Source: Escherichia phage phiAPCEc03
Sequence record: NC_047754.1
DNA: 64,000 bases
Reading direction: 5' to 3' (one strand)
A model generated the notes under the pieces. The model made no database searches. It saw nothing but the letters and a program-made list of their open reading frames with translations, and was not told the DNA's origin. Positions 1 to 55,066 of this stretch are shown here, piece by piece (within the stretch, counting starts at the first letter, position 1; each line of letters opens with the position of its first letter). The position numbers and the translations under genes are program-made.

Positions 1-461
1 CTGGCTTTTCTAAGTTCTTTTTCAGCCTGCTCAAGAGTTTTAAAAGTTCCTATGGTAATTCTATTACCATTTACACGTAGTTTTGCTTCGAACTTTCCCT
101 CCCCGCGTTTATATACTCCCTTAACCCCTGTAGACTCATTCTTCCATCCCGAAGAGTTTTTTCCATTCTCTGCATTTGTTGCTTTACGTAAGTTATTCCA
201 CCTATTGTTGAAGGGGTCTTGATCTTTGTGATCAATGAGAAATTCACCTGGGTCTTCTCCTGTCATGTATAGATACGCTACCCGATGGGCCTTATATAAC
301 CCATTATTACCCATTGATAGGGATATTCCTGAACTATTTCTACTACCTGCTGGTTTACCTTTACGACTCCCTGAATTCCAAGTAAATATACCTGCCTCTG
401 GATCATAGTCATATTTTTTCTTATATTCTTCTAATGATAGAAGAGGTTTATGATTTGCCAT
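1..461 (-). CDS. HNH-AP2 homing endonuclease, partial (start codon at 461, C-terminus runs off window edge)
   Basis: Hand translation of minus strand from ATG at 461 gives MANHKPLLSLEEYKKKYDYDPEAGIFTWNSG...YKAHRVAYLYMTGEDPGEFLIDHKDQDPFNNRWNNLRKATNAENGKN...GVKGVYKRGEGKFEAKLRVNGNRITIGTFKTLEQAEKELRKA with no stop to position 1; HNH motif plus AP2-like C-terminal domain; paralogous to ORFs at 40340, 47672, 60851. Absent from ORF track because it is truncated. Confidence 0.6.
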   Translation of the reverse strand, partial: MANHKPLLSLEEYKKKYDYDPEAGIFTWNSGSRKGKPAGSRNSSGISLSMGNNGLYKAHRVAYLYMTGEDPGEFLIDHKDQDPFNNRWNNLRKATNAENGKNSSGWKNESTGVKGVYKRGEGKFEAKLRVNGNRITIGTFKTLEQAEKELRKA

Positions 462-666
462 TTATCTTGAATCTCCTCCGAGAACTTCTTGAGCCATCAT
501 TCCACTCCCGCTCAAACTCCGCACGTTTCTCTTCAAACTTCCGCTCCCTTTCCGCAATCTCCCGCGATACTTCCGCAATATATTTACGATGGCTGTCGAT
601 AGCCGCAGTCATTCCGAAAATTCCCGCAAGTATCCCGATAATAAAAGCAATTATAATACTAAACAT
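448..666 (-). CDS. small membrane protein (N-terminal transmembrane helix, charged C-terminus)
   Basis: 72 aa ORF; hydrophobic N-terminus FSIIIAFIIGILAGIFGMTAAI followed by K/E/R-rich tail; function unknown. Confidence 0.4.
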   Translation of the reverse strand: MFSIIIAFIIGILAGIFGMTAAIDSHRKYIAEVSREIAERERKFEEKRAEFEREWNDGSRSSRRRFKINGKS

Positions 667-853
667 CTAATTCCCTCTCAATTTGCAGAATACGGGTACT
701 ATCACAACGTTGCAGTTCTACTAATTTTTCTATAGCAAATTGTTGCTGCTTTACCTGGGCCTCTAGAGTTTTTAGGCGAACATACGCGTTATAAGAAACA
801 ATGAAAGTTGCCCAGACTAGTATTACTATTAGTGTAGCTACTACTTCCATCAT
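659..853 (-). CDS. small membrane protein (TM helix plus coiled-coil-like tail)
   Basis: 64 aa ORF; MMEVVATLIVILVWATFIVSY hydrophobic segment; start overlaps stop of upstream small ORF (ATGA-type coupling). Confidence 0.4.
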   Translation of the reverse strand: MMEVVATLIVILVWATFIVSYNAYVRLKTLEAQVKQQQFAIEKLVELQRCDSTRILQIERELDV

Positions 854-957
854 TTACGTTTCTCCAGTAATAAAATTTCAACTCTAGCCAAGTGATTATC
901 TAAAATACATTGTCCGATAATAACAACCCCTAGTAATGCAATAATTACCCATTCCAT
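850..957 (-). CDS. very small membrane protein (35 aa)
   Basis: Hand translation MEWVIIALLGVVIIGQCILDNHLARVEILLLEKRK; overlapping stop/start with neighbours; below ORF-track size cutoff. Confidence 0.3.
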   Translation of the reverse strand: MEWVIIALLGVVIIGQCILDNHLARVEILLLEKRK

Positions 958-1085
958 TAAATCCACCCCGCCATAGCTGCTAACCAAAAACCTACGAAAA
1001 TAAAGAATAGGATAGTTCCGAACCCAAAACTATTTATCCAACTCTCATACACCTCTCCGCGTCTATTCTTTCTTTTGTTTGACAT
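957..1085 (-). CDS. very small membrane protein (42 aa)
   Basis: Hand translation MSNKRKNRRGEVYESWINSFGFGTILFFIFVGFWLAAMAGWI; basic N-terminus then hydrophobic helix; TAATG overlap with next ORF. Confidence 0.3.
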   Translation of the reverse strand: MSNKRKNRRGEVYESWINSFGFGTILFFIFVGFWLAAMAGWI

Positions 1086-1261
1086 ATCTTTCGTGCTCCC
1101 ATAAATGTGATATTTAAAATATTTTATAGTTTGTGTATAACCGACCGTGCTTGTGAACTCCTAGAAGGACTCCTATTTTTCTTACCTAGTGGTTTCTGCC
1201 AATATACCATCCAAGAAATAAAAAATTTAGTTTACTTGGATGTCTTTTTGTTTTATACTAA

Positions 1262-1528
1262 TTACAGGTAATTAGATTGCTCTAGTTTAAATTTACAATC
1301 ACCATATTTAAGGTCAAACTGACTGAGATCCCACCACCCAAATTTAGTACGGAGCTGTACTACTGGAAAGCGATCTCCCTTAATACGAACTTTTTGAACC
1401 TTGAGACCGTAATGTTCTTCTCCCGCACCACCAAAAGATTTTACAAATCCCGTACAAAATGGTTTGGGAGCAGGTGCACAACCAGATAACATAACTACGG
1501 CAACTAGTGCAATTACAAACTTTTTCAT
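1262..1528 (-). CDS. llp: Llp-like lipoprotein (receptor-blocking superinfection-exclusion lipoprotein)
   Basis: 88 aa; signal peptide MKKFVIALVAVVMLSGC with lipobox LSG-C; divergent from the receptor-binding protein gene as in T5 llp/oad; own sigma70-like promoter. Confidence 0.75.
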   Translation of the reverse strand: MKKFVIALVAVVMLSGCAPAPKPFCTGFVKSFGGAGEEHYGLKVQKVRIKGDRFPVVQLRTKFGWWDLSQFDLKYGDCKFKLEQSNYL

Positions 1529-1559
1529 ATTTATCTCTCCATTTCTAATTTATGAATCT

Positions 1560-1588
1560 ATTATAGCAAAATAGAGGGATGAAAGCAA
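1560..1588 (-). promoter_or_regulatory. sigma70-type promoter for llp (-35 TTGCTT, 17 nt spacer, -10 TATAAT)
   Basis: Minus-strand reading: TTGCTT-tcatccctctattttgc-TATAAT then GGAGAG Shine-Dalgarno before the llp ATG. Confidence 0.6.
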
Positions 1589-1613
1589 ATACATTTTTAT
1601 AATAGGAGATTAT

Positions 1614-3371
1614 ATGGGTTTTTTCGCTGGAAAGTATAGCGATGGTAAGACCGTACTATCTTTAAATACTGAATCTGGGGGTGACATTAATCGTCACTAT
1701 AGTCCAAATAATAATAGTATTTTTCATAGTGATATGCCATTTGTCCTAGTTGATGGTACTTACGAGGCTGGGTTAGGTGATGCCGGAAATGGGTTTTTCG
1801 TATGTCAGATGCCTCCTGATATAGTAAATATTAAATCTAATGATCCTGGTAGAGTTATACTAACTGCTATTGAAATTAACGGCACTCACAGAGCTTTTCT
1901 TAATGGTACTCAGAGTAAGGTTGGTCAAACTATAGTTGCCACTCAAGCTGATCCCTTTAGATCTTTTGCTAGTGTTTCTCAAACTAGTGGATTTGCATTT
2001 GGTAATAGTCTAGCATCTGGAACTTATAATTATAATTCATCGATAGGGCACGAAGAATCTATCTCTAGGAGTGGCACAGGGGGTACTACATTACATAGTA
2101 CCTACCATGGGATAGTTAGGCCCGGTGCGGGAGCTCCTGTAGGTGTTACTGTTGCAGAAGCTTTTGCACAATTAGGGTTTCCTACTAACAGTAGCACAGT
2201 ACCTGTAGATGGGAATAACCCGTACTATTGGGATCCTGGATGGATGTCGCCTCTAGGAGCAGCACATAGAGGGCATGATTGGTTTTATGTTTGCAATTCT
2301 AATATACGTGGGTACGGTGGGGTTAGGCAAGGGCTCCCAGGTAATGTAAATACTATGTACCACGACGGCGGGAACAGATTTGTTTGTAGGGGATCTACTA
2401 CTAATCTAGCTAACCAGTCGGGTGACTCTACAATACTACAGGATTGGTATAATATAACTCCTACTAAGGTTATTTGGTATGTTCTTAACTTAAGGTACTC
2501 AAATGGCGGTATGAGTATTTCCGGCAATCCCTTTACTGGTTCTGATATTCTTATATCTCCTTCTAATTTCATAATTAAAGGGGTAAGTCTCCCGAATACT
2601 GGATATAAATTTATAAATCAGAATGCTTTTGGTAACCTAGGTTACCGTCCTGATATGGAGTATATAGGGAATAACGCAGCGTATACTGGGGTTTTTGGGG
2701 ATACCACGGCAAGGTGTGAACTTGTAGGGTCTAGTAATGGAGGATTATGGTCTCCTGTAGACTATGGTGGAGCTAAATCACAGATTAGCATTTATAGGTT
2801 CGGAGTAGGTAAACAGTGGTATGTAAACTCTAACGATAATACTATTGGTAACGAGCATGGAGTTGTTTGGGGACCATCAGCAGTTCCACTGCGACTTTTT
2901 GGTGGAAATGTAGGTAGTTCTTATATGGGAGATGATATTACTCCTAGCTACCCAGGAACGGGTGATAGATACGTTGGTTTATCAACTATTGGGCTAGGTA
3001 TACCAGGCGGAAATGCTACAGTAATTCTTACTACTGAAGTTATATCAGGTAATCTTAATTGTGCGGGTGTTCCAGCTAATACATGGAATAACGGTGTGTT
3101 TCAAGTGCAAGGAAGAAGAGCATATAGCTATAGCGGCGGGGATGCAATATTCCACCAGATTTTAACGCTACCTGTGGGCTATCTAGTACCTTTTCATACT
3201 ACATCTGCTTTTAGATATACACCTAACAATGCTCTAAGTAGAAACAGTTTTATATATACAGTTAAAAATCTAGGAAATGGAAATGTGGAGTTAGGGGTAG
3301 TTATGCACGTGAGTTTGGGTAGTGCAGTTTTCCTACCTAGATTAAGAGTAACAGTTCAACGCCTTACCTAA
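1614..3371 (+). CDS. receptor-binding tail protein (T5 pb5/Oad-like)
   Basis: 585 aa; N-terminus [24 protein letters not shown] and C-terminus RVTVQRLT resemble my recollection of T5 pb5; Gly/Asn-rich; SD AGGAG; adjacent divergent llp. Confidence 0.7.
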
Positions 3372-3381
3372 AGGAGGAAAT

Positions 3382-3864
3382 ATGGCAAATGATGTATTAG
3401 TACCAGATCTTATGTCCCCTGAAGGGATGGATGTGATTGAAGCTTATTTACAGTGCGGCAGCGATGTGCCTTCTGCCGCACGTAGTCTTGGAATGTCCGA
3501 AATTGCTTTCCGAGATATTATGAATCGTAGTGAAGTTAAGAACTACTTAAATGATATTTTTATGGAAAGTGGATTCCGTAACAGGGATCGTTTGTTTGGT
3601 GTTCTAGATGAAGTTATTAAACGTAAACTAGAGGAACTGGAAGAAACTGGCATGGGTTCTGACCAGGATATTATGGATATTCTCTGGAAAGCACACAAGA
3701 TGAAGATGGAAGAGATGAAAATGATGGTAGAGTTAGAAAAAGCTAAAGCTGCCGTTCGAGCTCCTGCTAATCAGACCAATATCCAGAATAACATTATTGC
3801 TGGAGCTGGGGATCAAAACTACATGGACTTAATTACTTCCCTGGCTACTGGAGGTAAGAAATAA
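3382..3864 (+). CDS. putative terminase small subunit
   Basis: 160 aa ORF immediately upstream of and abutting large terminase (stop/start overlap); helix-turn-helix-like N-terminal region; SD AGGAGG. Confidence 0.5.
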
Positions 3865-5180
3865 TGGAAGTATCAAGACCCTACGTTAACACAGTAGATG
3901 TTATTGATTTCGGAATAGACAAACGTTTCTTTCGTTTACCTGTTTCAGGAATACTAGCACAAGAAGGTATTACACCTAATGGTCCTCAAATAGCGATTAT
4001 CAATGCGCTAGAAGACCCTAGACATCGTTTTGTAACGGCGTGTGTATCGCGCCGTGTGGGCAAGTCCTTTATAGCATATACACTTGGATTCCTAAAATTG
4101 CTGGAACCCAATGTGAAGGTACTAGTAGTTGCTCCTAACTACTCACTGGCCAACATCGGATGGTCTCAGATTCGTGGTCTTATTAAGAAGTATGGCCTAC
4201 AAACTGAACGTGAGAACGCTAAAGATAAAGAGATTGAGTTAGCTAATGGTTCTCTGTTTAAACTAGCTTCCGCGGCTCAGGCTGACTCCGCAGTTGGACG
4301 TTCATATGATTTTATCATTTTCGATGAGGCGGCAATTTCCGATGTGGGTGGTGATGCCTTTAGGGTTCAGTTACGTCCTACTCTAGATAAACCTAATTCT
4401 AAAGCTCTATTTATTTCCACCCCTCGTGGAGGTAACTGGTTTAAAGAGTTTTACGCCTATGGATTTGATGATACGTTACCTAACTGGGTGTCTATTCATG
4501 GTACATACCGTGATAACCCTCGTGCTGACCTGAATGACATTGAGGAAGCACGTCGTACAGTTAGTAAAAACTACTTCCGCCAGGAATACGAGGCCGACTT
4601 CTCTGTATTCGAAGGCCAGATCTTTGATACCTTTAATGCTATCGATCATGTTAAAGACCTCAAAGGTATGCGTCACTTCTTTAAAGATGATGAAGCATTC
4701 GAAACATTGCTTGGTATTGACGTTGGTTATCGTGATCCTACAGCAGTTCTTACTATTAAGTACCACTATGATACAGATACCTACTATGTATTAGAAGAGT
4801 ACCAGCAGGCAGAGAAAACTACAGCGCAACATGCTGCGTATATTCAGCACTGTATAGATCGTTATAACGTAGATCGTATCTTCGTTGACTCCGCGGCTGC
4901 CCAGTTCCGTCAGGACTTAGCTTATGAACATGAAATTGCATCAGCTCCAGCTAAAAAATCTGTCCTAGACGGTCTAGCATGCTTGCAAGCGCTATTCCAG
5001 CAAGGCAAGATTATTGTAGATGCTTCATGTTCCTCATTAATCCATGCGTTGCAGAACTATAAATGGGACTTCCAAGAAGGTGAAGAAAAATTATCACGTG
5101 AAAAACCACGTCATGATGCTAACTCTCACCTCTGTGATGCGCTGCGCTATGGAATTTACTCTATTTCCCGTGGTAAATAA
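3864..5180 (+). CDS. terminase large subunit
   Basis: 438 aa, same length as T5 large terminase; ATPase N-terminal region and nuclease C-terminal region; position before portal. Confidence 0.85.
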   Translation: MEVSRPYVNTVDVIDFGIDKRFFRLPVSGILAQEGITPNGPQIAIINALEDPRHRFVTACVSRRVGKSFIAYTLGFLKLLEPNVKVLVVAPNYSLANIGWSQIRGLIKKYGLQTERENAKDKEIELANGSLFKLASAAQADSAVGRSYDFIIFDEAAISDVGGDAFRVQLRPTLDKPNSKALFISTPRGGNWFKEFYAYGFDDTLPNWVSIHGTYRDNPRADLNDIEEARRTVSKNYFRQEYEADFSVFEGQIFDTFNAIDHVKDLKGMRHFFKDDEAFETLLGIDVGYRDPTAVLTIKYHYDTDTYYVLEEYQQAEKTTAQHAAYIQHCIDRYNVDRIFVDSAAAQFRQDLAYEHEIASAPAKKSVLDGLACLQALFQQGKIIVDASCSSLIHALQNYKWDFQEGEEKLSREKPRHDANSHLCDALRYGIYSISRGK

Positions 5181-5294
5181 ATAAATATAGGAAGGGATAC
5201 TACTCAGTTGGTATCCCATTCCTGCATTTTAAAATCCCCTTTACAAATTCGATACGATTATGTATACTATATTCATACAGTTGAGGAGAACACT

Positions 5295-5732
5295 ATGGCA
5301 AGCAATATAAAATATAAACGCGATGCTATATCCCTTATGAGAGACGGAATAAAAAGTCAATATAAAAAAGACTCTCAATGTGCTATCTGCGGTTGTGCTG
5401 AAGAATTAGAGCTTCATCATTACCATACGGTGTCTCTACTAGTTAAAAAATTTGCTAAAGAACTCCAATTGGATTTCACTGACGAAGAAACAGTCCTTTC
5501 AAATAGGACGGCATTCTATGATCGATATAGGCATGAGCTAGTAGAAGACACTGTTACCCTTTGTGTACACCATCACCAATTATTACATAAGGTTTACACA
5601 AAAGAACCTCCTTTATTTTCTGCTAATAAGCAAAAAGTGTGGGTTCAAAAGCAGAAAGACAAATTACAGAATCCTCAAGAAAAGACACAAGTCAAGACTG
5701 AAACAAAATCAGGATTCGCAAGGTTCTTATAA
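5295..5732 (+). CDS. HNH endonuclease (Cys/His-box type)
   Basis: CAICGCAEELELHHYH ... CVHHHQLLH metal-binding pattern; ATG at 5295 preceded by GAGGAG SD (ORF track's upstream start at 5208 is unlikely); sits between terminase and portal. Confidence 0.6.
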   Translation: MASNIKYKRDAISLMRDGIKSQYKKDSQCAICGCAEELELHHYHTVSLLVKKFAKELQLDFTDEETVLSNRTAFYDRYRHELVEDTVTLCVHHHQLLHKVYTKEPPLFSANKQKVWVQKQKDKLQNPQEKTQVKTETKSGFARFL

Positions 5733-6949
5733 TGGGTTTTAAAAGCTGGATTACTGAAAAGCTAAATCCGGGTCAACGTATTATAAGAGACATGGAACCA
5801 GTTAGTCATCGCACTAACCGTAAGCCTTTTACCACTGGACAAGCCTACAGTAAAATTGAGATTCTCAATAGAACTGCTAATATGGTTATAGATAGTGCGG
5901 CGGAGTGTTCTTATACTGTCGGAGATAAATATAATATTGTCACGTATGCCAATGGTATCAAGACAAAGACTCTAGACACTCTCTTAAATGTACGACCTAA
6001 TCCATTCATGGATATAAGCACATTCCGTAGACTTGTAGTCACTGACCTACTTTTTGAAGGTTGTGCATACATCTATTGGGATGGCACAGCACTTTACCAT
6101 GTCCCTGCTGCACTAATGCAAGTAGAGGCAGATGCCAATAAGTTTATCAAAAAATTTATATTTAATAATCAGATAGACTATCGCGTAGATGAGATTATCT
6201 TTATAAAGGATAACAGTTACATGCGCGGCACAAATTCTCAAATTTCTGGACAATCTCGTGTTGCTACTGTTATTGATTCTCTTGAGAAGCGTTCTAAGAT
6301 GCTTAACTTTAAAGAGAAATTCCTCGATAACGGAACCGTGATTGGTCTTATTCTTGAGACGGATGAAATCCTGAACAAGAAATTGCGTGAGCGTAAACAA
6401 GAAGAATTACAACTAGATTATAATCCTAGTACTGGTCAGTCCTCTGTCCTGATTCTAGATGGTGGTATGAAAGCTAAACCGTACTCCCAAATATCCTCTT
6501 TTAAAGATCTAGACTTTAAGGAAGACATTGAAGGATTTAATAAATCTATCTGTCTAGCCTTTGGTGTTCCGCAAGTACTGATTGATGGTGGTAATAATGC
6601 GAACATTCGACCAAACATCGAATTGTTCTACTATATGACTATCATCCCTATGCTGAACAAACTGACTAGTTCTCTTACTTTCTTTTTTGGTTATAAGATT
6701 ACTCCTAATACTAAGGAAGTAGCTGCATTAACACCAGATAAAGAATCTGAGGCTAAACATTTAACCTCATTGGTTAATAATGGTATTATAACTGGTAACG
6801 AAGCTCGTTTAGAGCTGAACCTTGAACCTTTAGATGATGAGCAGATGAATAAGATTCGTATTCCTGCTAACGTTGCTGGTTCTGCAACAGGCGTATCTGG
6901 TCAAGAAGGTGGTAGACCTCAAGGTTCCACCGAGGGAGATAAAGAATGA
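5732..6949 (+). CDS. portal protein
   Basis: 405 aa; position after terminase and before protease/capsid; size close to T5 portal pb7. Confidence 0.8.
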   Translation: MGFKSWITEKLNPGQRIIRDMEPVSHRTNRKPFTTGQAYSKIEILNRTANMVIDSAAECSYTVGDKYNIVTYANGIKTKTLDTLLNVRPNPFMDISTFRRLVVTDLLFEGCAYIYWDGTALYHVPAALMQVEADANKFIKKFIFNNQIDYRVDEIIFIKDNSYMRGTNSQISGQSRVATVIDSLEKRSKMLNFKEKFLDNGTVIGLILETDEILNKKLRERKQEELQLDYNPSTGQSSVLILDGGMKAKPYSQISSFKDLDFKEDIEGFNKSICLAFGVPQVLIDGGNNANIRPNIELFYYMTIIPMLNKLTSSLTFFFGYKITPNTKEVAALTPDKESEAKHLTSLVNNGIITGNEARLELNLEPLDDEQMNKIRIPANVAGSATGVSGQEGGRPQGSTEGDKE

Positions 6950-51491: not shown

Positions 51492-51582
51492 GTAAAATTT
51501 TCCGGATGGTGCTATCATTGGTCTTGAGTACGGATAAAACCGAGCCAAAATGACTCGGTAATCAGAGTTCAGCTAATAAAAA

Positions 51583-51975
51583 TCATTCATCATTTAGGCC
51601 TGGAACATAAATCCCAACACGATTTAATTGTTCTTTAGCTTCTGCGAGAATATCTGGAGTGTACTCCCAAATATCATCTTCCACCTGTAAAAGATGGGGC
51701 GAACAACCATCATCCGGCACACGACATATGGCCAAACCACGTGGATGGAATATAGAGAAGTTTAGGGCAACAATTAAACCCATAGCGGATAATTCATTCC
51801 AGTCCAATTCCCATTCCCCCGCGTAGCCGGATAGGAAAACACCAACACAGGGATCATCTATTTGCTGCTCCGGAAAAGTGAAGGAGGCTTGTCTTACCCC
51901 CAACCAACGTTGTAGCAGCTTCTCCGCACGTTTCACCAAACTAGGATCAATCTGACGCCAATATACTTGTTCCAT
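51583..51975 (-). CDS. hypothetical protein, tandem paralog B
   Basis: 130 aa; aligns with neighbour at 51985 (PCVGVFL..W.EL..MGLIVALNF..F.P......YVPGL versus PCIGLIV..WKELDEMGLVFALNYKLFMP....YMIPGL). Confidence 0.5.
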   Translation of the reverse strand: MEQVYWRQIDPSLVKRAEKLLQRWLGVRQASFTFPEQQIDDPCVGVFLSGYAGEWELDWNELSAMGLIVALNFSIFHPRGLAICRVPDDGCSPHLLQVEDDIWEYTPDILAEAKEQLNRVGIYVPGLNDE

Positions 51976-51984
51976 TATGCCCTC

Positions 51985-52413
51985 TTAAGCAGTTAAACCT
52001 GGGATCATATACCCGAAACGTCGAAGTTTCTGAATCCCCTCATCTACTTCTTCCGGTGAGTAAGACCAACCATAACGTTCATTAACCTGAAAACCAGGAG
52101 ATTCACTAGTTTTATAGTTAACAACGAGGCGATGCTTAGCAGGCATAAACAGCTTATAGTTTAACGCAAAAACTAAGCCCATTTCATCTAACTCTTTCCA
52201 GCCGACAATCTCTTCAAGACCCTCCTCTACCTGAACAATTAAACCAATACAGGGGGCCTCATCAATATCATCTTTAAAAGCAAAGGAGATTTCGTTATTC
52301 TCACACCATATTTTCAAAGAGTTAATAGCCTCATTATACAGGCTAGCTGGGAGAGTACGCCAAAAGTTAACCAAAATTGGGTTAGCTTCTTTAGAGAATA
52401 CATTATTGAACAT
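51985..52413 (-). CDS. hypothetical protein, tandem paralog A
   Basis: 142 aa; see paralog B. Confidence 0.5.
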   Translation of the reverse strand: MFNNVFSKEANPILVNFWRTLPASLYNEAINSLKIWCENNEISFAFKDDIDEAPCIGLIVQVEEGLEEIVGWKELDEMGLVFALNYKLFMPAKHRLVVNYKTSESPGFQVNERYGWSYSPEEVDEGIQKLRRFGYMIPGLTA

Positions 52414-52415
52414 AT

Positions 52416-52955
52416 TTACACCTTAAATTGTTGCAAGGATTTACACATTTCAAGATCTGGGCTAAATTCTAGCATATAGCTAACAGCTTTTAAATCTTGA
52501 AGATTTATCCCAGTCCTACCGTTGACTATAACCGTTGGATACTGATACATCATAGCACCCGCATCATCAAGCACACACCAATGTTTGAGCTTATGCTTTT
52601 CAACGAAGCGAAGAACAGAATTACCCCTAGATAATCCACCACCAGTAAAATCCGTTGTACCAAGAAAACGATCGATAAGACCTAATCCGGTCATAATCTG
52701 AACGTTCTCCATCTCATTTCTGACAGAAAACCAAGATGATACTCCGACAATCATTATCGGAGAAGGACGAATAAAGTCCTGAAAAGCCTTGAGAAGCGGT
52801 TTGAAAACCCAGTCACTTCCAAAGAAAATCTTTTCATCATCAGGTGCATGATGGTGGGAGATGCTCGAATTGAGCACCCCATCAATGTCTAGAAAAATAA
52901 TTGGAGTATTACTTATTTCCACCAGTAGCATCCCACGTCCAGACTTTAACTTCAT
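52416..52955 (-). CDS. HAD-superfamily phosphatase-like protein
   Basis: 179 aa; motif I FLDIDGVL near N-terminus; downstream VLDDAG-type acidic motif. Confidence 0.6.
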   Translation of the reverse strand: MKLKSGRGMLLVEISNTPIIFLDIDGVLNSSISHHHAPDDEKIFFGSDWVFKPLLKAFQDFIRPSPIMIVGVSSWFSVRNEMENVQIMTGLGLIDRFLGTTDFTGGGLSRGNSVLRFVEKHKLKHWCVLDDAGAMMYQYPTVIVNGRTGINLQDLKAVSYMLEFSPDLEMCKSLQQFKV

Positions 52956-53094
52956 CAGTAAAAGGAACCGGAACCTTCAATTCACCCTTACCCCACATAA
53001 CAGACAGGAACAGAGAATAAATGGTAATCATACCAATTAGGTTGACAAACCATACTAGACCTTTCCAGATACCCTTAAAAATCTTCTTTATCAT
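52909..53094 (-). CDS. small membrane protein
   Basis: 61 aa; hydrophobic helix LVWFVNLIGMITIYSLFLSVMW; start overlaps stop of upstream small ORF (ATGA). Confidence 0.4.
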   Translation of the reverse strand: MIKKIFKGIWKGLVWFVNLIGMITIYSLFLSVMWGKGELKVPVPFTDEVKVWTWDATGGNK

Positions 53095-53261
53095 TCGTTC
53101 TCCTCTAGGAACGTATCATACTCAACCGTATCAACATATATGACACCATAGTCATCGGATTTATAGTCCATTTCCCACAGCTCACAGCGATAGCACCAAC
53201 TACCATCCGCCCATACAAATATATCATCGGGATGTGTATACACAGATTTAACTATGGACAT
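53091..53261 (-). CDS. small hypothetical protein (56 aa), paralog of 53252..53437
   Basis: Hand translation MSIVKSVYTHPDDIFVWADGSWCYRCELWEMDYKSDDYGVIYVDTVEYDTFLEENE; shares D-IF-x-GSWCYR motif with neighbour; below ORF-track cutoff. Confidence 0.35.
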   Translation of the reverse strand: MSIVKSVYTHPDDIFVWADGSWCYRCELWEMDYKSDDYGVIYVDTVEYDTFLEENE

Positions 53262-53437
53262 ATCTGTTTCCCCTCATCTCCAGAGGATAACCATATGTTC
53301 TCTGTAGTATAGATAATTTTATATGTGTTGCCCAACCTTTCTTTAACATTAGGAAATCTATAGGCAAACCTATAACACCACGTGCCAGACTCAGTTATAA
53401 AAATATCCCATTCATTATTTCTTGCTTCCCGACACAT
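53252..53437 (-). CDS. small hypothetical protein
   Basis: 61 aa; EWDIFITESGTWCYRF motif shared with 53091..53261. Confidence 0.35.
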   Translation of the reverse strand: MCREARNNEWDIFITESGTWCYRFAYRFPNVKERLGNTYKIIYTTENIWLSSGDEGKQICP

Positions 53438-54233
53438 AAGGTCTACCCTCTAAATGAGCTTCTACACGAGCAATAAAATCAGGATCACTGAAAGCATCTA
53501 CCGCACCTTTACTCCAGTAAGGGATACCGCGTTCTTCCAGCTGGTACATCTCACTACGAGTCATACCTTGATAGCCCGGTTCCGCCGCTAGGGCACTATC
53601 ATAGTAGTTAACAACCATTAGCTTGGCAGCAGTCAAATTAAGAACAGGAAATAATTCCCAGTAGAAGTTAATTACTTGGTTAGAGCAACCAATCACAACG
53701 ATCATATCTTGACTGGTAATACCATCAAAAACATTGTACATTTCTGCGTATGCAGGAGCATGCTCTCCAAAGAAGATTACATTAGGTTTAACCCATTTAT
53801 AATCATCTGGATCAATAGAATTATATCCTACATCAATAATCCGTTTATTACTACTACTGTAGCTATCCGCTACAACAACCTCTTTTAAGTATCCATGAAT
53901 GTGCAGAATGTCACTATGTGGAACTCCAGCACGCTCAATAAGGTCATCAACGTTGGTAGTCAAGTTTACTATTTGACCGGGATATTGTTTATACCATTCG
54001 CCAATACGCAAATGCGCAAGATTGGGTTCAACAGTTTTTAGCTCTTCACGACGCTTGTTGTAAAACATATGGGTTTTATGATAAAAATTACCACGAAAGG
54101 CATGAATATTACATACTTCTTCTAGATCATAATCATCCCACAGTGCTTTACCACTAGCAGTATCAGTACGGAAGGCTCGTACACCACTTTCAACACTCAA
54201 ACCTGCACCGCTAATAATAATTAATCTACGCAT
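53415..54233 (-). CDS. Sir2-family (sirtuin-like) NAD-dependent protein, zinc-ribbon-less
   Basis: 272 aa; sirtuin signature motifs GAGLSVESGVRAFR (cf. GAGISxxSGIPxFR), TTNVDDL (cf. TQNID), HIHG catalytic His, NVIFFGE, VIGCS; no CxxC...CxxC zinc module between HG and FFGE. Confidence 0.7.
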   Translation of the reverse strand: MRRLIIISGAGLSVESGVRAFRTDTASGKALWDDYDLEEVCNIHAFRGNFYHKTHMFYNKRREELKTVEPNLAHLRIGEWYKQYPGQIVNLTTNVDDLIERAGVPHSDILHIHGYLKEVVVADSYSSSNKRIIDVGYNSIDPDDYKWVKPNVIFFGEHAPAYAEMYNVFDGITSQDMIVVIGCSNQVINFYWELFPVLNLTAAKLMVVNYYDSALAAEPGYQGMTRSEMYQLEERGIPYWSKGAVDAFSDPDFIARVEAHLEGRPYVSGSKK

Positions 54234-54447
54234 TTTTCACCTGTTCTCTGAAGTTTTGCCCAATACTGCCTAATAGCTCAGCTAATTCTTTATTGCCTTT
54301 CTCCATTAAGGTATTAGCAATAACTTCTAGCATAGTAGCGCAGGATTCAACACCATCCTTATAGCCAGTTTCCCAGTGCTGCATTAATGCATTTTCCAAA
54401 GCGGCGTTTAACCCCTTATCTGGTAGCATCGGCTTCGAGAATGCCAT
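54226..54447 (-). CDS. hypothetical protein
   Basis: 73 aa ORF. Confidence 0.35.
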   Translation of the reverse strand: MAFSKPMLPDKGLNAALENALMQHWETGYKDGVESCATMLEVIANTLMEKGNKELAELLGSIGQNFREQVKNA

Positions 54448-54619
54448 ACAGTTTCTCCTCTAGTTCCATAACACGATTTTCATAAGAGGCACGCAACTTT
54501 TCAATTGCCAGCGCACGCACTGTAACCTCATTAGAATTAATAGCTAATTGGGCCAGATCTTCTGTTTCCATACGTCCGTTGTAAATTAAGCGATATTTAA
54601 GATGTTTTACGTTTTTCAT
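54416..54619 (-). CDS. hypothetical protein
   Basis: 67 aa ORF. Confidence 0.35.
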   Translation of the reverse strand: MKNVKHLKYRLIYNGRMETEDLAQLAINSNEVTVRALAIEKLRASYENRVMELEEKLYGILEADATR

Positions 54620-54990
54620 ACTTTTAGCTCCGCTCCAATATCCTCATAGAAGTAATCGTAGTAAACCTGCTTAATATGATGTTTAATAACAGAAGAGAAA
54701 TCCTCTGTGCCGTTAGAGGTAACATTAAATACTTGTAAGTGGTTCCAATATACAAATTCTAGAGTCTCTTTTAAGTCTTCAGGTTCTTCATATATAGGAT
54801 TATAGACAGTAATATCTAATTCTTGCTCTACGAAGTCACCTAGTAATGTAGGATATCCAATACCTCCTAGCAATGAGTAATCACCTGTAGCAGCAAAAAT
54901 AGCTTCCTGAATAGTATCTACTCCTAAGTGATAATGTCCTAACTTAGATACAACAATAAATGGTTTTAGGTCCATATACCCTCCTCTCAA
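54616..54990 (-). CDS. hypothetical protein
   Basis: 124 aa acidic ORF with SD GAGAGGAGGG and upstream promoter. Confidence 0.45.
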   Translation of the reverse strand: MRGGYMDLKPFIVVSKLGHYHLGVDTIQEAIFAATGDYSLLGGIGYPTLLGDFVEQELDITVYNPIYEEPEDLKETLEFVYWNHLQVFNVTSNGTEDFSSVIKHHIKQVYYDYFYEDIGAELKV

Positions 54991-55031: not shown

Positions 55032-55066
55032 ATAAAATAAAAGCCAGGTCGACTAGCAACCCGGCT
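55032..55066 (-). terminator. intrinsic terminator after nrdD
   Basis: Minus-strand hairpin AGCCGGG-ttgctagtcga-CCTGGCT followed by TTTTATTTTATTT. Confidence 0.6.

Follow-up and report, generated by a model that had tools for sequence, protein, structure and literature searches.

The HAD_SAK_2 gene of phage phiAPCEc03

Escherichia phage phiAPCEc03 is a T5-like phage (Demerecviridae, Tequintavirus). A 64,000-nt stretch of its sequence record NC_047754.1 (the window, to which all positions refer) encodes a HAD-fold protein on the minus strand, in one apparent operon with a Sir2-like protein (sirtuin). An earlier annotation made from the sequence alone, hereafter the original prediction, had placed an aspartate-nucleophile phosphatase of the HAD family with a DIDGVL motif I at 52416-52955, adjacent to the Sir2-like gene. 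This open reading frame (ORF) is indeed present on the minus strand, where it is the longest ORF (52416..52955, 179 aa) and contains the sequence LDIDGVL. The protein is nevertheless probably 168 and not 179 aa long, since the only in-frame start in most T5-like relatives (24 T5-like loci compared) lies 11 codons before DIDG (MEISNTP...) and corresponds to a GTG at position 52922 in phiAPCEc03, whereas the longest ORF is opened by an ATG at 52955. The stretch from 52923 to 52955 (33 bases) is probably part of the upstream small ORF alone. The T5 ortholog, T5.105, is annotated as a 168-aa "conserved hypothetical protein", and residue numbers below refer to this shorter form unless stated otherwise. 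The 3 kb around the gene matched 445 phage records in all, including Salmonella phage ABTNLsp4 and Escherichia phage slur09 at 96%.

The protein matched the Pfam family HAD_SAK_2 (PF18143) with an E-value of 4.9e-20 and a score of 72.7 bits, where the cut-off is 27.5, and the match covers positions 1-138 of the 139-position profile. It also matched phrog_1818, a family with no assigned function (E 1.6e-57). HAD_SAK_2 was the only family reported at E-values up to 0.1 in the Pfam scan, which gave no match to an NT5C-type nucleotidase profile or to a Macro domain. Scans of the HAD protein against NCBIfam and PADLOC yielded nothing useful, and a search of PDB sequences with the family profile found no relative, while a profile search recovered 1612 homologs. 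The family is acidic, with a median isoelectric point of 5.3.

In HAD enzymes, a nucleophilic Asp attacks a phosphate monoester to form an aspartyl-phosphate, which is then hydrolysed by water. All four catalytic motifs are found in the phiAPCEc03 protein (Table 1). Their conservation was assessed in alignments of 13 and 66 homologs reaching down to approximately 22% identity, and motifs I-IV are retained across clades down to 19-31% identity. Of the two Asp residues in motif I, the first (D12; D23 in the 179-aa ORF) is predicted to act as nucleophile and the second as acid/base. Motif III carries an Arg in place of the usual Lys, which is a permitted variant at this position in HAD proteins. 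The AlphaFold model computed from the 66 aligned homologs (predicted local distance difference test score 96.8, predicted template modelling score 0.92) has a small Rossmann-like core with strands at residues 8-11, 57-60, 86-89, and 115-119, a flap hairpin at 31-40, and no cap domain. Among solved structures, the top fold match was MDP-1 (PDB 1u7p; E 8.6e-4, template modelling (TM) score 0.54), and the further matches were likewise cap-less HAD phosphatases: AQ2171, KdsC/YrbI, the phosphatase domain of T4 Pnkp (PDB 2ia5; Foldseek probability 0.82, TM score 0.42, 13% identity), and Scp1. Deoxyribonucleotidases ranked far lower (cdN, 2i7d, probability 0.20), and the only predicted viral structures that matched well lacked a functional assignment or carried generic phosphatase or HAD labels. 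By sequence and modelled structure, the gene is thus an intact HAD_SAK_2 phosphatase gene. The original assignment to the aspartate-nucleophile phosphatases agrees with the invariant or nearly invariant motifs, the Pfam match, and the confidently predicted HAD fold, and the two motif I Asp residues, proposed at the time as its critical check, are both invariant in the 66 homologs.

Operon context and the partner sirtuin

The HAD gene is located between the replication genes and a nucleotide-metabolism cluster (NrdD, PhoH, NrdAB), in a set of tightly packed or overlapping minus-strand genes with the order three small ORFs, sirtuin, three small ORFs, HAD, and two DUF7415 genes (Table 1). The first DUF7415 gene starts 2 nt after the HAD stop codon. 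Pfam and phrog scans of the operon proteins revealed neither of the NARP1 proteins (Adps and Namat, see below) and no kinase among them.

Table 1. Features of the sirtuin-HAD operon in the phiAPCEc03 window and related operons in other phages
Feature	Position	Strand	Remarks
HAD_SAK_2 phosphatase gene, T5.105 ortholog	52416..52922	-	168 aa from conserved GTG; Pfam, T5 annotation, start comparison, AlphaFold
Motif I, DIDGVL	52872..52889	-	L-D-I-D-G-V-L invariant in 66 sequences and across clades
Motif II, SSW	52731..52739	-	S62 and W64 invariant, S63 at least 90% conserved; Ser predicted to bind phosphate
Gly-rich loop and motif III, TGGGLSRG	52623..52646	-	R99 invariant
Motif IV, DD	52563..52568	-	Predicted Mg2+ ligands; D119 invariant, D120 at least 90% conserved
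Upstream terminator-like hairpin	55042..55066	-	After nrdD; upstream limit of operon
Three small ORFs at operon head	54616..54990, 54416..54619, 54226..54447	-	Region of T5.100/T5.101
Sir2-like gene, T5.102 ortholog	53415..54233	-	Pfam SIR2, E 1.7e-24
Small ORF, 61 aa, phrog_5116	53252..53437	-	Directly 3' of Sir2-like gene
Small ORF, 56 aa, phrog_5116	53091..53261	-	"WCYR" motif; extra paralog compared with T5
Small ORF, 61 aa, phrog_11166	52909..53094	-	T5.104; overlaps HAD start
DUF7415 gene, T5.106 ortholog	51985..52413	-	Pfam PF24187, E 5.2e-36
Second DUF7415 paralog, T5.107 ortholog	51583..51975	-	PF24187, E 3.8e-32; final gene of operon
Downstream terminator-like hairpin	51535..51559	-	9-bp stem and U tract, 24 nt past final DUF7415 gene; folding
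NARP1-HAD operons	L086:7603-11217, L087:7630-11519, L091:7637-11708, L141:4631-8489, L142:4606-8569		Vequintavirinae-like contigs

In an alignment of 22 sequences of the partner sirtuin, no variation was seen in the NAD+-binding GAGxS loop (G9, A10, G11, S13) or in the catalytic residues N94, D96, and H113. The four-Cys zinc module is absent: there is one conserved Cys (C41) and there are no CxxC pairs. The predicted fold is nearest to E. coli CobB (1s5p) and class III sirtuins and not to the defence-type SIR2 NADases, and a PADLOC scan gave no match for the sirtuin. It thus looks like a CobB-like lysine deacylase lacking zinc. We counted 998 phage records with a member of this sirtuin clade, among them T5-like, rV5-like, and Mydovirus phages, PVP-SE1, and Vibrio jumbo phages.

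Linkage of the HAD and sirtuin genes

We found the HAD gene in 497 phage records, 436 of which match at 80% identity or more, and the sirtuin-HAD pair is present in the T5-like records. The distant Pectobacterium phage My1 likewise encodes both proteins in one operon. An inverted gene order, with HAD followed by one small ORF and then SIR2, was found in Pantoea phage AAS21 and in four metagenomic contigs from divergent T5-like phages, and since the DUF7415 genes are absent and other cassette genes differ in these inverted loci, the pair appears to outlast its neighbours. In phage DT57C, both genes are gone and a 90-aa chimera remains (L095:2480-2752, annotated as "sir2 (defective)"), which joins sirtuin residues ~171-212 to the final 39 residues of the HAD protein (residues ~141-179 of the 179-aa ORF). 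As DT57C lacks both genes, the module seems to be dispensable in the laboratory and its two parts to have been lost together in this phage. Chimeras of this type probably also seeded the "Sir2" label of phrog_18062, a 92-aa profile that matches the C-terminal half of the HAD protein (E 7e-58). Of practical relevance, many phage annotations misname the HAD gene "Sir2 NAD-dependent deacetylase", resulting in two such entries per genome.

The linkage is frequent but not obligate. No Sir2 gene was detected within 6 kb of the HAD gene in 60 diverse viral loci with single-sequence phmmer searches. A 262-aa gene upstream of the HAD gene in Proteus phage Pm5461 was considered as a hidden sirtuin and rejected, as it had no Pfam or BLASTP similarity. 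The analysis of linkage across phages, suggested together with the original prediction, therefore gives a mixed picture, in which the association survives inversion and ended in joint loss in DT57C but is obligate in neither direction. Similarly, the described adjacency applies insofar as the two genes share a strand and one apparent operon, but three small ORFs lie in between.

The gene, its family, and the pairing with a sirtuin are already known, although the original prediction mentioned neither the named family nor the publication in question. A neighbourhood of Sir2 and a SAK-like HAD protein, typified by phage SP15, was described by Iyer, Burroughs, Anantharaman, and Aravind in 2022 and predicted to function in NAD+-using RNA repair (PMC9503650, section 3.7.3). 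These authors proposed that the sirtuin acts in a KptA-like manner on 2'-phosphates, and that the HAD protein processes either an RNA terminal phosphate or the ADP-ribose cyclic phosphate by-product (PMC9503650). As SP15 is T5-like and matches at 93.6%, the gene pair of phiAPCEc03 is the one described there. Literature searches found no experimental work on T5.105, T5.102, HAD_SAK proteins, or phage sirtuins of the same clade.

A sister clade within NARP1 operons

The nearest homologs outside the T5-like group share 32-45% identity with the phiAPCEc03 protein and are encoded by five Vequintavirinae-like contigs, namely Serratia phage ChuuTotoro and four metagenomic contigs, whose HAD proteins are 44-75% identical to one another. 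These genes are part of operons that also encode NARP1, the NAD+ reconstitution pathway consisting of Adps and Namat (bioRxiv 10.1101/2024.02.11.579819). In all five contigs (5/5), a 125-140-aa ORF precedes the HAD gene, which is followed, either directly or after one or two small ORFs, by a gene for a Prs-like protein and one for a 594-600-aa protein of the NAPRTase family; in ChuuTotoro, the HAD stop codon overlaps the Prs-like start. The Prs-like (Adps-like) protein is 39-42% identical to the proteins of Felixounavirus records and 37% identical to those of ICP1; Felixounavirus is the genus to which we assign Bas63, the source of the original definition of NARP1. Judging by sequence, the Prs-like and NAPRTase-family genes next to the sister-clade HAD gene are the NARP1 genes for Adps and Namat. 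The Vequintavirinae-like contigs also contain an RNA ligase cluster, but this forms a divergent transcription unit, whereas the HAD gene is co-oriented with NARP1.

In a distance tree, the sirtuin-linked and NARP1-linked HAD proteins form neighbouring clades of one subfamily characterized by the motifs (T/C)GGGxxRG and DDAG. The (T/C)GGG loop is also found in the other subfamily members sampled (L092, L093, and Pm5461; numbers prefixed with L denote loci in our comparison). In contrast, the HAD proteins that have an RNA ligase or a Macro-like gene as their neighbour (L046, L067, and L075) belong to a distant clade with 19-31% identity and lack the GGG loop. A HAD gene in such operons is not mentioned in the NARP1, NARP1-AP, or RyDEP papers, and a link between the sister clade and NARP1 appears not to have been described in the searchable literature. 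It leads to a directly testable hypothesis.

NAD+-related genes were also seen in the vicinity of other HAD_SAK_2 genes. In L093, NARP1-like genes are found 6 kb from the HAD gene. A 171-kb phage contig (L067, positions 73-6453; also L068) encodes on one strand an NMNAT-Nudix and a Nampt gene (NARP2-like), an RNA ligase (PF09414), a 630-bp ORF, and a HAD_SAK_2 protein, with the NARP2-like genes located 3.6 kb from the HAD gene. In L043, a Nampt-like gene lies two genes upstream of the HAD gene. Two distant HAD_SAK_2 genes are accompanied by borderline Macro ORFs (21.4 bits against a cut-off of 22), one of which overlaps the HAD start (L075:5511-6005; the other is L030:3692-4228).

Possible substrate and function

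We agree with the original prediction that the substrate cannot be inferred from the sequence, and the choice between candidates rests on gene context. Among the options named there, this context favours an NAD- or ADP-ribose-derived substrate, because the gene shares an operon with a sirtuin and the sister clade is found inside NARP1 operons, while an activity on deoxynucleoside monophosphates (dNMPs) finds little support (see below). Building on the observed family, motifs, fold, operon context, and contexts of the relatives, we tentatively infer that the HAD protein is active on an NAD-derived ADP-ribose phosphate and cooperates with the NAD+-consuming sirtuin, a reading that we prefer over the others without considering it assured. 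The protein would be an active, cap-less, Mg2+-dependent phosphomonoesterase, produced early in infection together with the zinc-less sirtuin, with which it shares an operon. Following the chemistry of the HAD superfamily, Asp12 would attack the substrate phosphate via an aspartyl-phosphate intermediate, and removal of the phosphate would leave plain ADP-ribose, which could be recycled or disposed of. Candidate substrates are ADP-ribose-1''-phosphate, the opened product of ADP-ribose-1'',2''-cyclic phosphate, and 2'-phospho-ADP-ribose.

Such an enzyme would correspond in function, though not by descent, to Adpp, the Macro-domain ADP-ribose-1''-phosphate phosphatase of the extended NARP1 operons (NARP1-AP), the substrate of which is made by the aRES defence (bioRxiv 10.64898/2026.01.28.702374). 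Together with RyDEP, a glycosidase that is likewise a NARP1-operon accessory enzyme and acts on cyclic ADP-ribose signals, Adpp turns modified ADP-ribose into plain ADP-ribose. Like Adpp, the HAD protein is a predicted phosphomonoesterase encoded within or beside phage NAD+ genes, and its sister clade occupies the equivalent position in NARP1 operons. However, the Macro fold is unrelated to the HAD fold and the phiAPCEc03 operon encodes a sirtuin instead of NARP1, so that the relation is one of functional analogy only. A broader and more doubtful proposal is that the (T/C)GGGxxRG sub-clade as a whole represents a second, non-Macro class of phage ADP-ribose-phosphate phosphatases. In Vequintavirinae-like phages, these would feed NARP1, forming a new extended NARP1 that could overcome aRES-type or NADP-cleaving defences, and in T5-like phages they would be paired with a zinc-less sirtuin yielding phosphorylated ADP-ribose. 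If this were the case, the sirtuin would use a phosphate nucleophile, in a Tpt1-like or phosphorolytic reaction, and not perform lysine deacylation.

NAD+ depletion and repair are now central themes in the conflict between phages and bacteria, with NARP1, NARP2, NARP3, Adpp, and RyDEP as examples. T5-like phages are model phages that are also used therapeutically and possess an NAD+-dependent DNA ligase, and some of them carry the NARP3 NAD+ salvage module. An activity on NAD-derived ADP-ribose phosphates would explain the purpose of the virus-encoded sirtuin, extend the known means of NAD+ counter-defence by a new enzyme class, and account for a third gene that has gone unremarked in the Vequintavirinae-like NARP1 operons.

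Several points weigh against an ADP-ribose phosphate as the substrate. The normal products of sirtuin deacylation carry no extra phosphate, and cap-less HAD enzymes often act on macromolecules. As the phiAPCEc03 operon contains no NARP1 genes, ADP-ribose made there could not be rebuilt to NAD+ via NARP1. The partnership is also far from exclusive: the sirtuin is found in 998 records compared with 497 for the HAD protein, so that Sir2 occurs without the HAD gene in hundreds of phages, T5-like lineages among them. Klebsiella phage Roth49 (Sugarland-like) and Serratia phage Kamaji keep the sirtuin and have no HAD gene at the syntenic site, and T4-like Proteus and Aeromonas phages carry the HAD gene without a neighbouring sirtuin or NAD genes. 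The evidence from gene order is drawn from two phage groups, the Demerecviridae-like and the Vequintavirinae-like phages, and within each of them the linkage could partly reflect an inherited arrangement. In addition, an unbiased Pfam census of 288 neighbouring ORFs (the two nearest on each side, from ~85 diverse lineages in two sets) shows no dominant NAD-related partner of the HAD family; HNH, terminase, RNA ligase, and Metallophos genes recur at low frequency, and clustering of the neighbours in 60 diverse viral loci revealed no universal partner. Finally, fusions with a Pol-beta nucleotidyltransferase and with Metallophos occur in the family, which fits nucleic-acid end processing.

Alternative functions

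The last point leads to the explanation that we regard as the strongest competitor, and as possible although rather doubtful, namely RNA or DNA end-healing. The HAD protein would act on RNA that host anticodon nucleases or other metal-independent RNases have cleaved and take off its 3'- or 2'-phosphates, and a KptA/Tpt1-like sirtuin would transfer a 2'-phosphate onto NAD+. This is the function published for exactly the SP15-type neighbourhood (PMC9503650), and it fits the family title of PF18143 ("HAD domain in Swiss Army Knife RNA repair proteins"), the UniRef label "RNA repair protein" given to orthologs, and the fusions mentioned above. In the ~40 diverse viral lineages of the first census set, the immediate neighbours included three RNA ligases, two Rv2179c-like exoribonucleases, and two Metallophos genes. 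Clusters of Rnl1, a kinase, and Metallophos are located 2-5 kb from the HAD gene in L046/L047, L087, and L091, and L141 contains an Rnl1 gene 4.4 kb from the HAD gene that is cut by the end of the locus. The cap-less fold also resembles, to some extent, the phosphatase domain of T4 Pnkp, which is likewise a cap-less phage HAD of the DxDxT type and acts on ribose-linked phosphates.

The phiAPCEc03 protein is a full-length family member in this same gene pair. However, the published function is a computational prediction, and T5-like phages are without the ligase and kinase partners of RNA-repair systems. A tblastn search for Rnl1-type ligases retrieved 827 phage records, among which only 14 Salmonella phages, and one for Rnl2-type ligases retrieved 186 records with 15 Salmonella and 10 Escherichia phages, compared with ~400 T5-like records encoding the HAD protein; very divergent ligases could escape both searches. 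T5-like phages thus appear to lack Rnl1-type and Rnl2-type RNA ligases, and as no kinase was seen in the operon either, they seem to have no self-contained RNA repair pathway. Moreover, the HAD genes adjacent to ligases belong to the distant clade, while the sub-clade of the T5-like protein is associated with NAD+ enzymes. T4 Pnkp differs by its fused kinase, and the T5-like HAD protein, with its Arg motif III in a Gly-rich loop, showed no relationship to it in a sequence search and is no more similar to it than to small-molecule HAD enzymes. The KptA-like activity of the sirtuin is itself a prediction and its fold is CobB-like, and the acidic character of the HAD protein is a weak argument against a nucleic-acid-binding surface. 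If the protein nonetheless proved to be an RNA-end phosphatase, this would confirm the published computational prediction.

A substrate of another kind, such as a phosphoprotein or a sugar phosphate, with the sirtuin nearby merely through inherited gene order and without a functional link, seems unlikely to us. The best solved-structure matches, MDP-1 followed by KdsC and the C-terminal domain (CTD) phosphatase Scp1, would agree with it, as would the heterogeneous neighbour census and a linkage that is obligate in neither direction. Yet MDP-1 and KdsC/YrbI have in common with the T5-like protein a minimal cap-less HAD core at ~15% identity and act on unrelated substrates, so that this similarity indicates the fold class only. 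Furthermore, the pair persists through inversion and the turnover of other cassette genes, and the sister clade is again found beside NAD+ enzymes in an unrelated phage group.

Even less probable is the nucleotidase named among the options of the original prediction, a monophosphatase acting on dNMPs, nucleoside monophosphates, or a modified mononucleotide and either shaping nucleotide pools or removing a nucleotide alarm signal. The proximity to the nucleotide-metabolism cluster is consistent with this function, and homologs in T4-like phages are located near td, DHFR, or dUTPase. A precedent is MisB, a HAD phosphatase of the Metis defence system that dephosphorylates m6dAMP and is paired with a Metallophos enzyme (bioRxiv 10.1101/2025.11.05.686725). 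MisB likewise takes part in an NAD+-centred phage-host conflict, and Metallophos recurs next to HAD_SAK_2 and in fusion with it, being the commonest neighbour in the second census set (8 further viral and ~36 bacterial-genome loci) and of bacterial HAD_SAK_2 genes. MisB is, however, a bacterial defence component with m6dAMP as its substrate and belongs to a different Pfam family (PF13419). The phiAPCEc03 protein matches neither NT5C-type nor other nucleotidase families, has no cap domain for base recognition, and shows only the weak fold similarity to deoxyribonucleotidases noted above. In addition, T5 already has a dedicated pre-early 5'-deoxyribonucleotidase, Dmp.

That the protein is a catalytically dead HAD fold which only binds a ligand or partner is very improbable, as nothing specific speaks for it apart from its dispensability in DT57C, and the four catalytic motifs are invariant across even the most divergent clades.

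Other features of the operon and the window

The 64-kb window consists of structural genes on the plus strand, replication genes on the minus strand, the HAD operon, and the nucleotide-reductase cluster. As it contains no tRNA genes, the tRNA cluster typical of T5 must lie elsewhere in the genome. Both ends of the operon are marked by terminator-like hairpins (Table 1). The T5 annotation has a terminator followed by a promoter at the site equivalent to the upstream hairpin and a terminator at the site of the downstream one. The latter was missed by a simple terminator scan, and the fold energy of the surrounding 91-nt region is not unusual (z -0.27).

Downstream of the sirtuin in Roth49 (L139:4969-5762) and Kamaji (L140:4798-5289), DUF7415-like proteins, recognized by eye, are encoded directly after the sirtuin gene. 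Since they follow the sirtuin in the absence of a HAD gene, DUF7415 may be a sirtuin-associated family.

Variability is also found within the HAD_SAK_2 family. The Metallophos-HAD_SAK_2 fusion is a 417-aa protein (P0040), and Metallophos genes were also seen at L046, L051, L054, L087, and L091. Tandem HAD_SAK_2 paralogs are present in one viral and two bacterial loci (L043:5995-7010, L104:5449-6504, and L134:5404-6480).

The small companion ORFs of both the sirtuin and the NARP1 operon types had no significant Pfam match. Between the sirtuin and HAD genes, phiAPCEc03 has three small ORFs compared with two in T5 and slur09. The phrog_5116 ORFs stand in tandem here (56 and 61 aa, with a common "WCYR" motif), compared with one such ORF in T5 and slur09, and a similar small "WCYR" ORF follows the sirtuin in Klebsiella phage Roth49.

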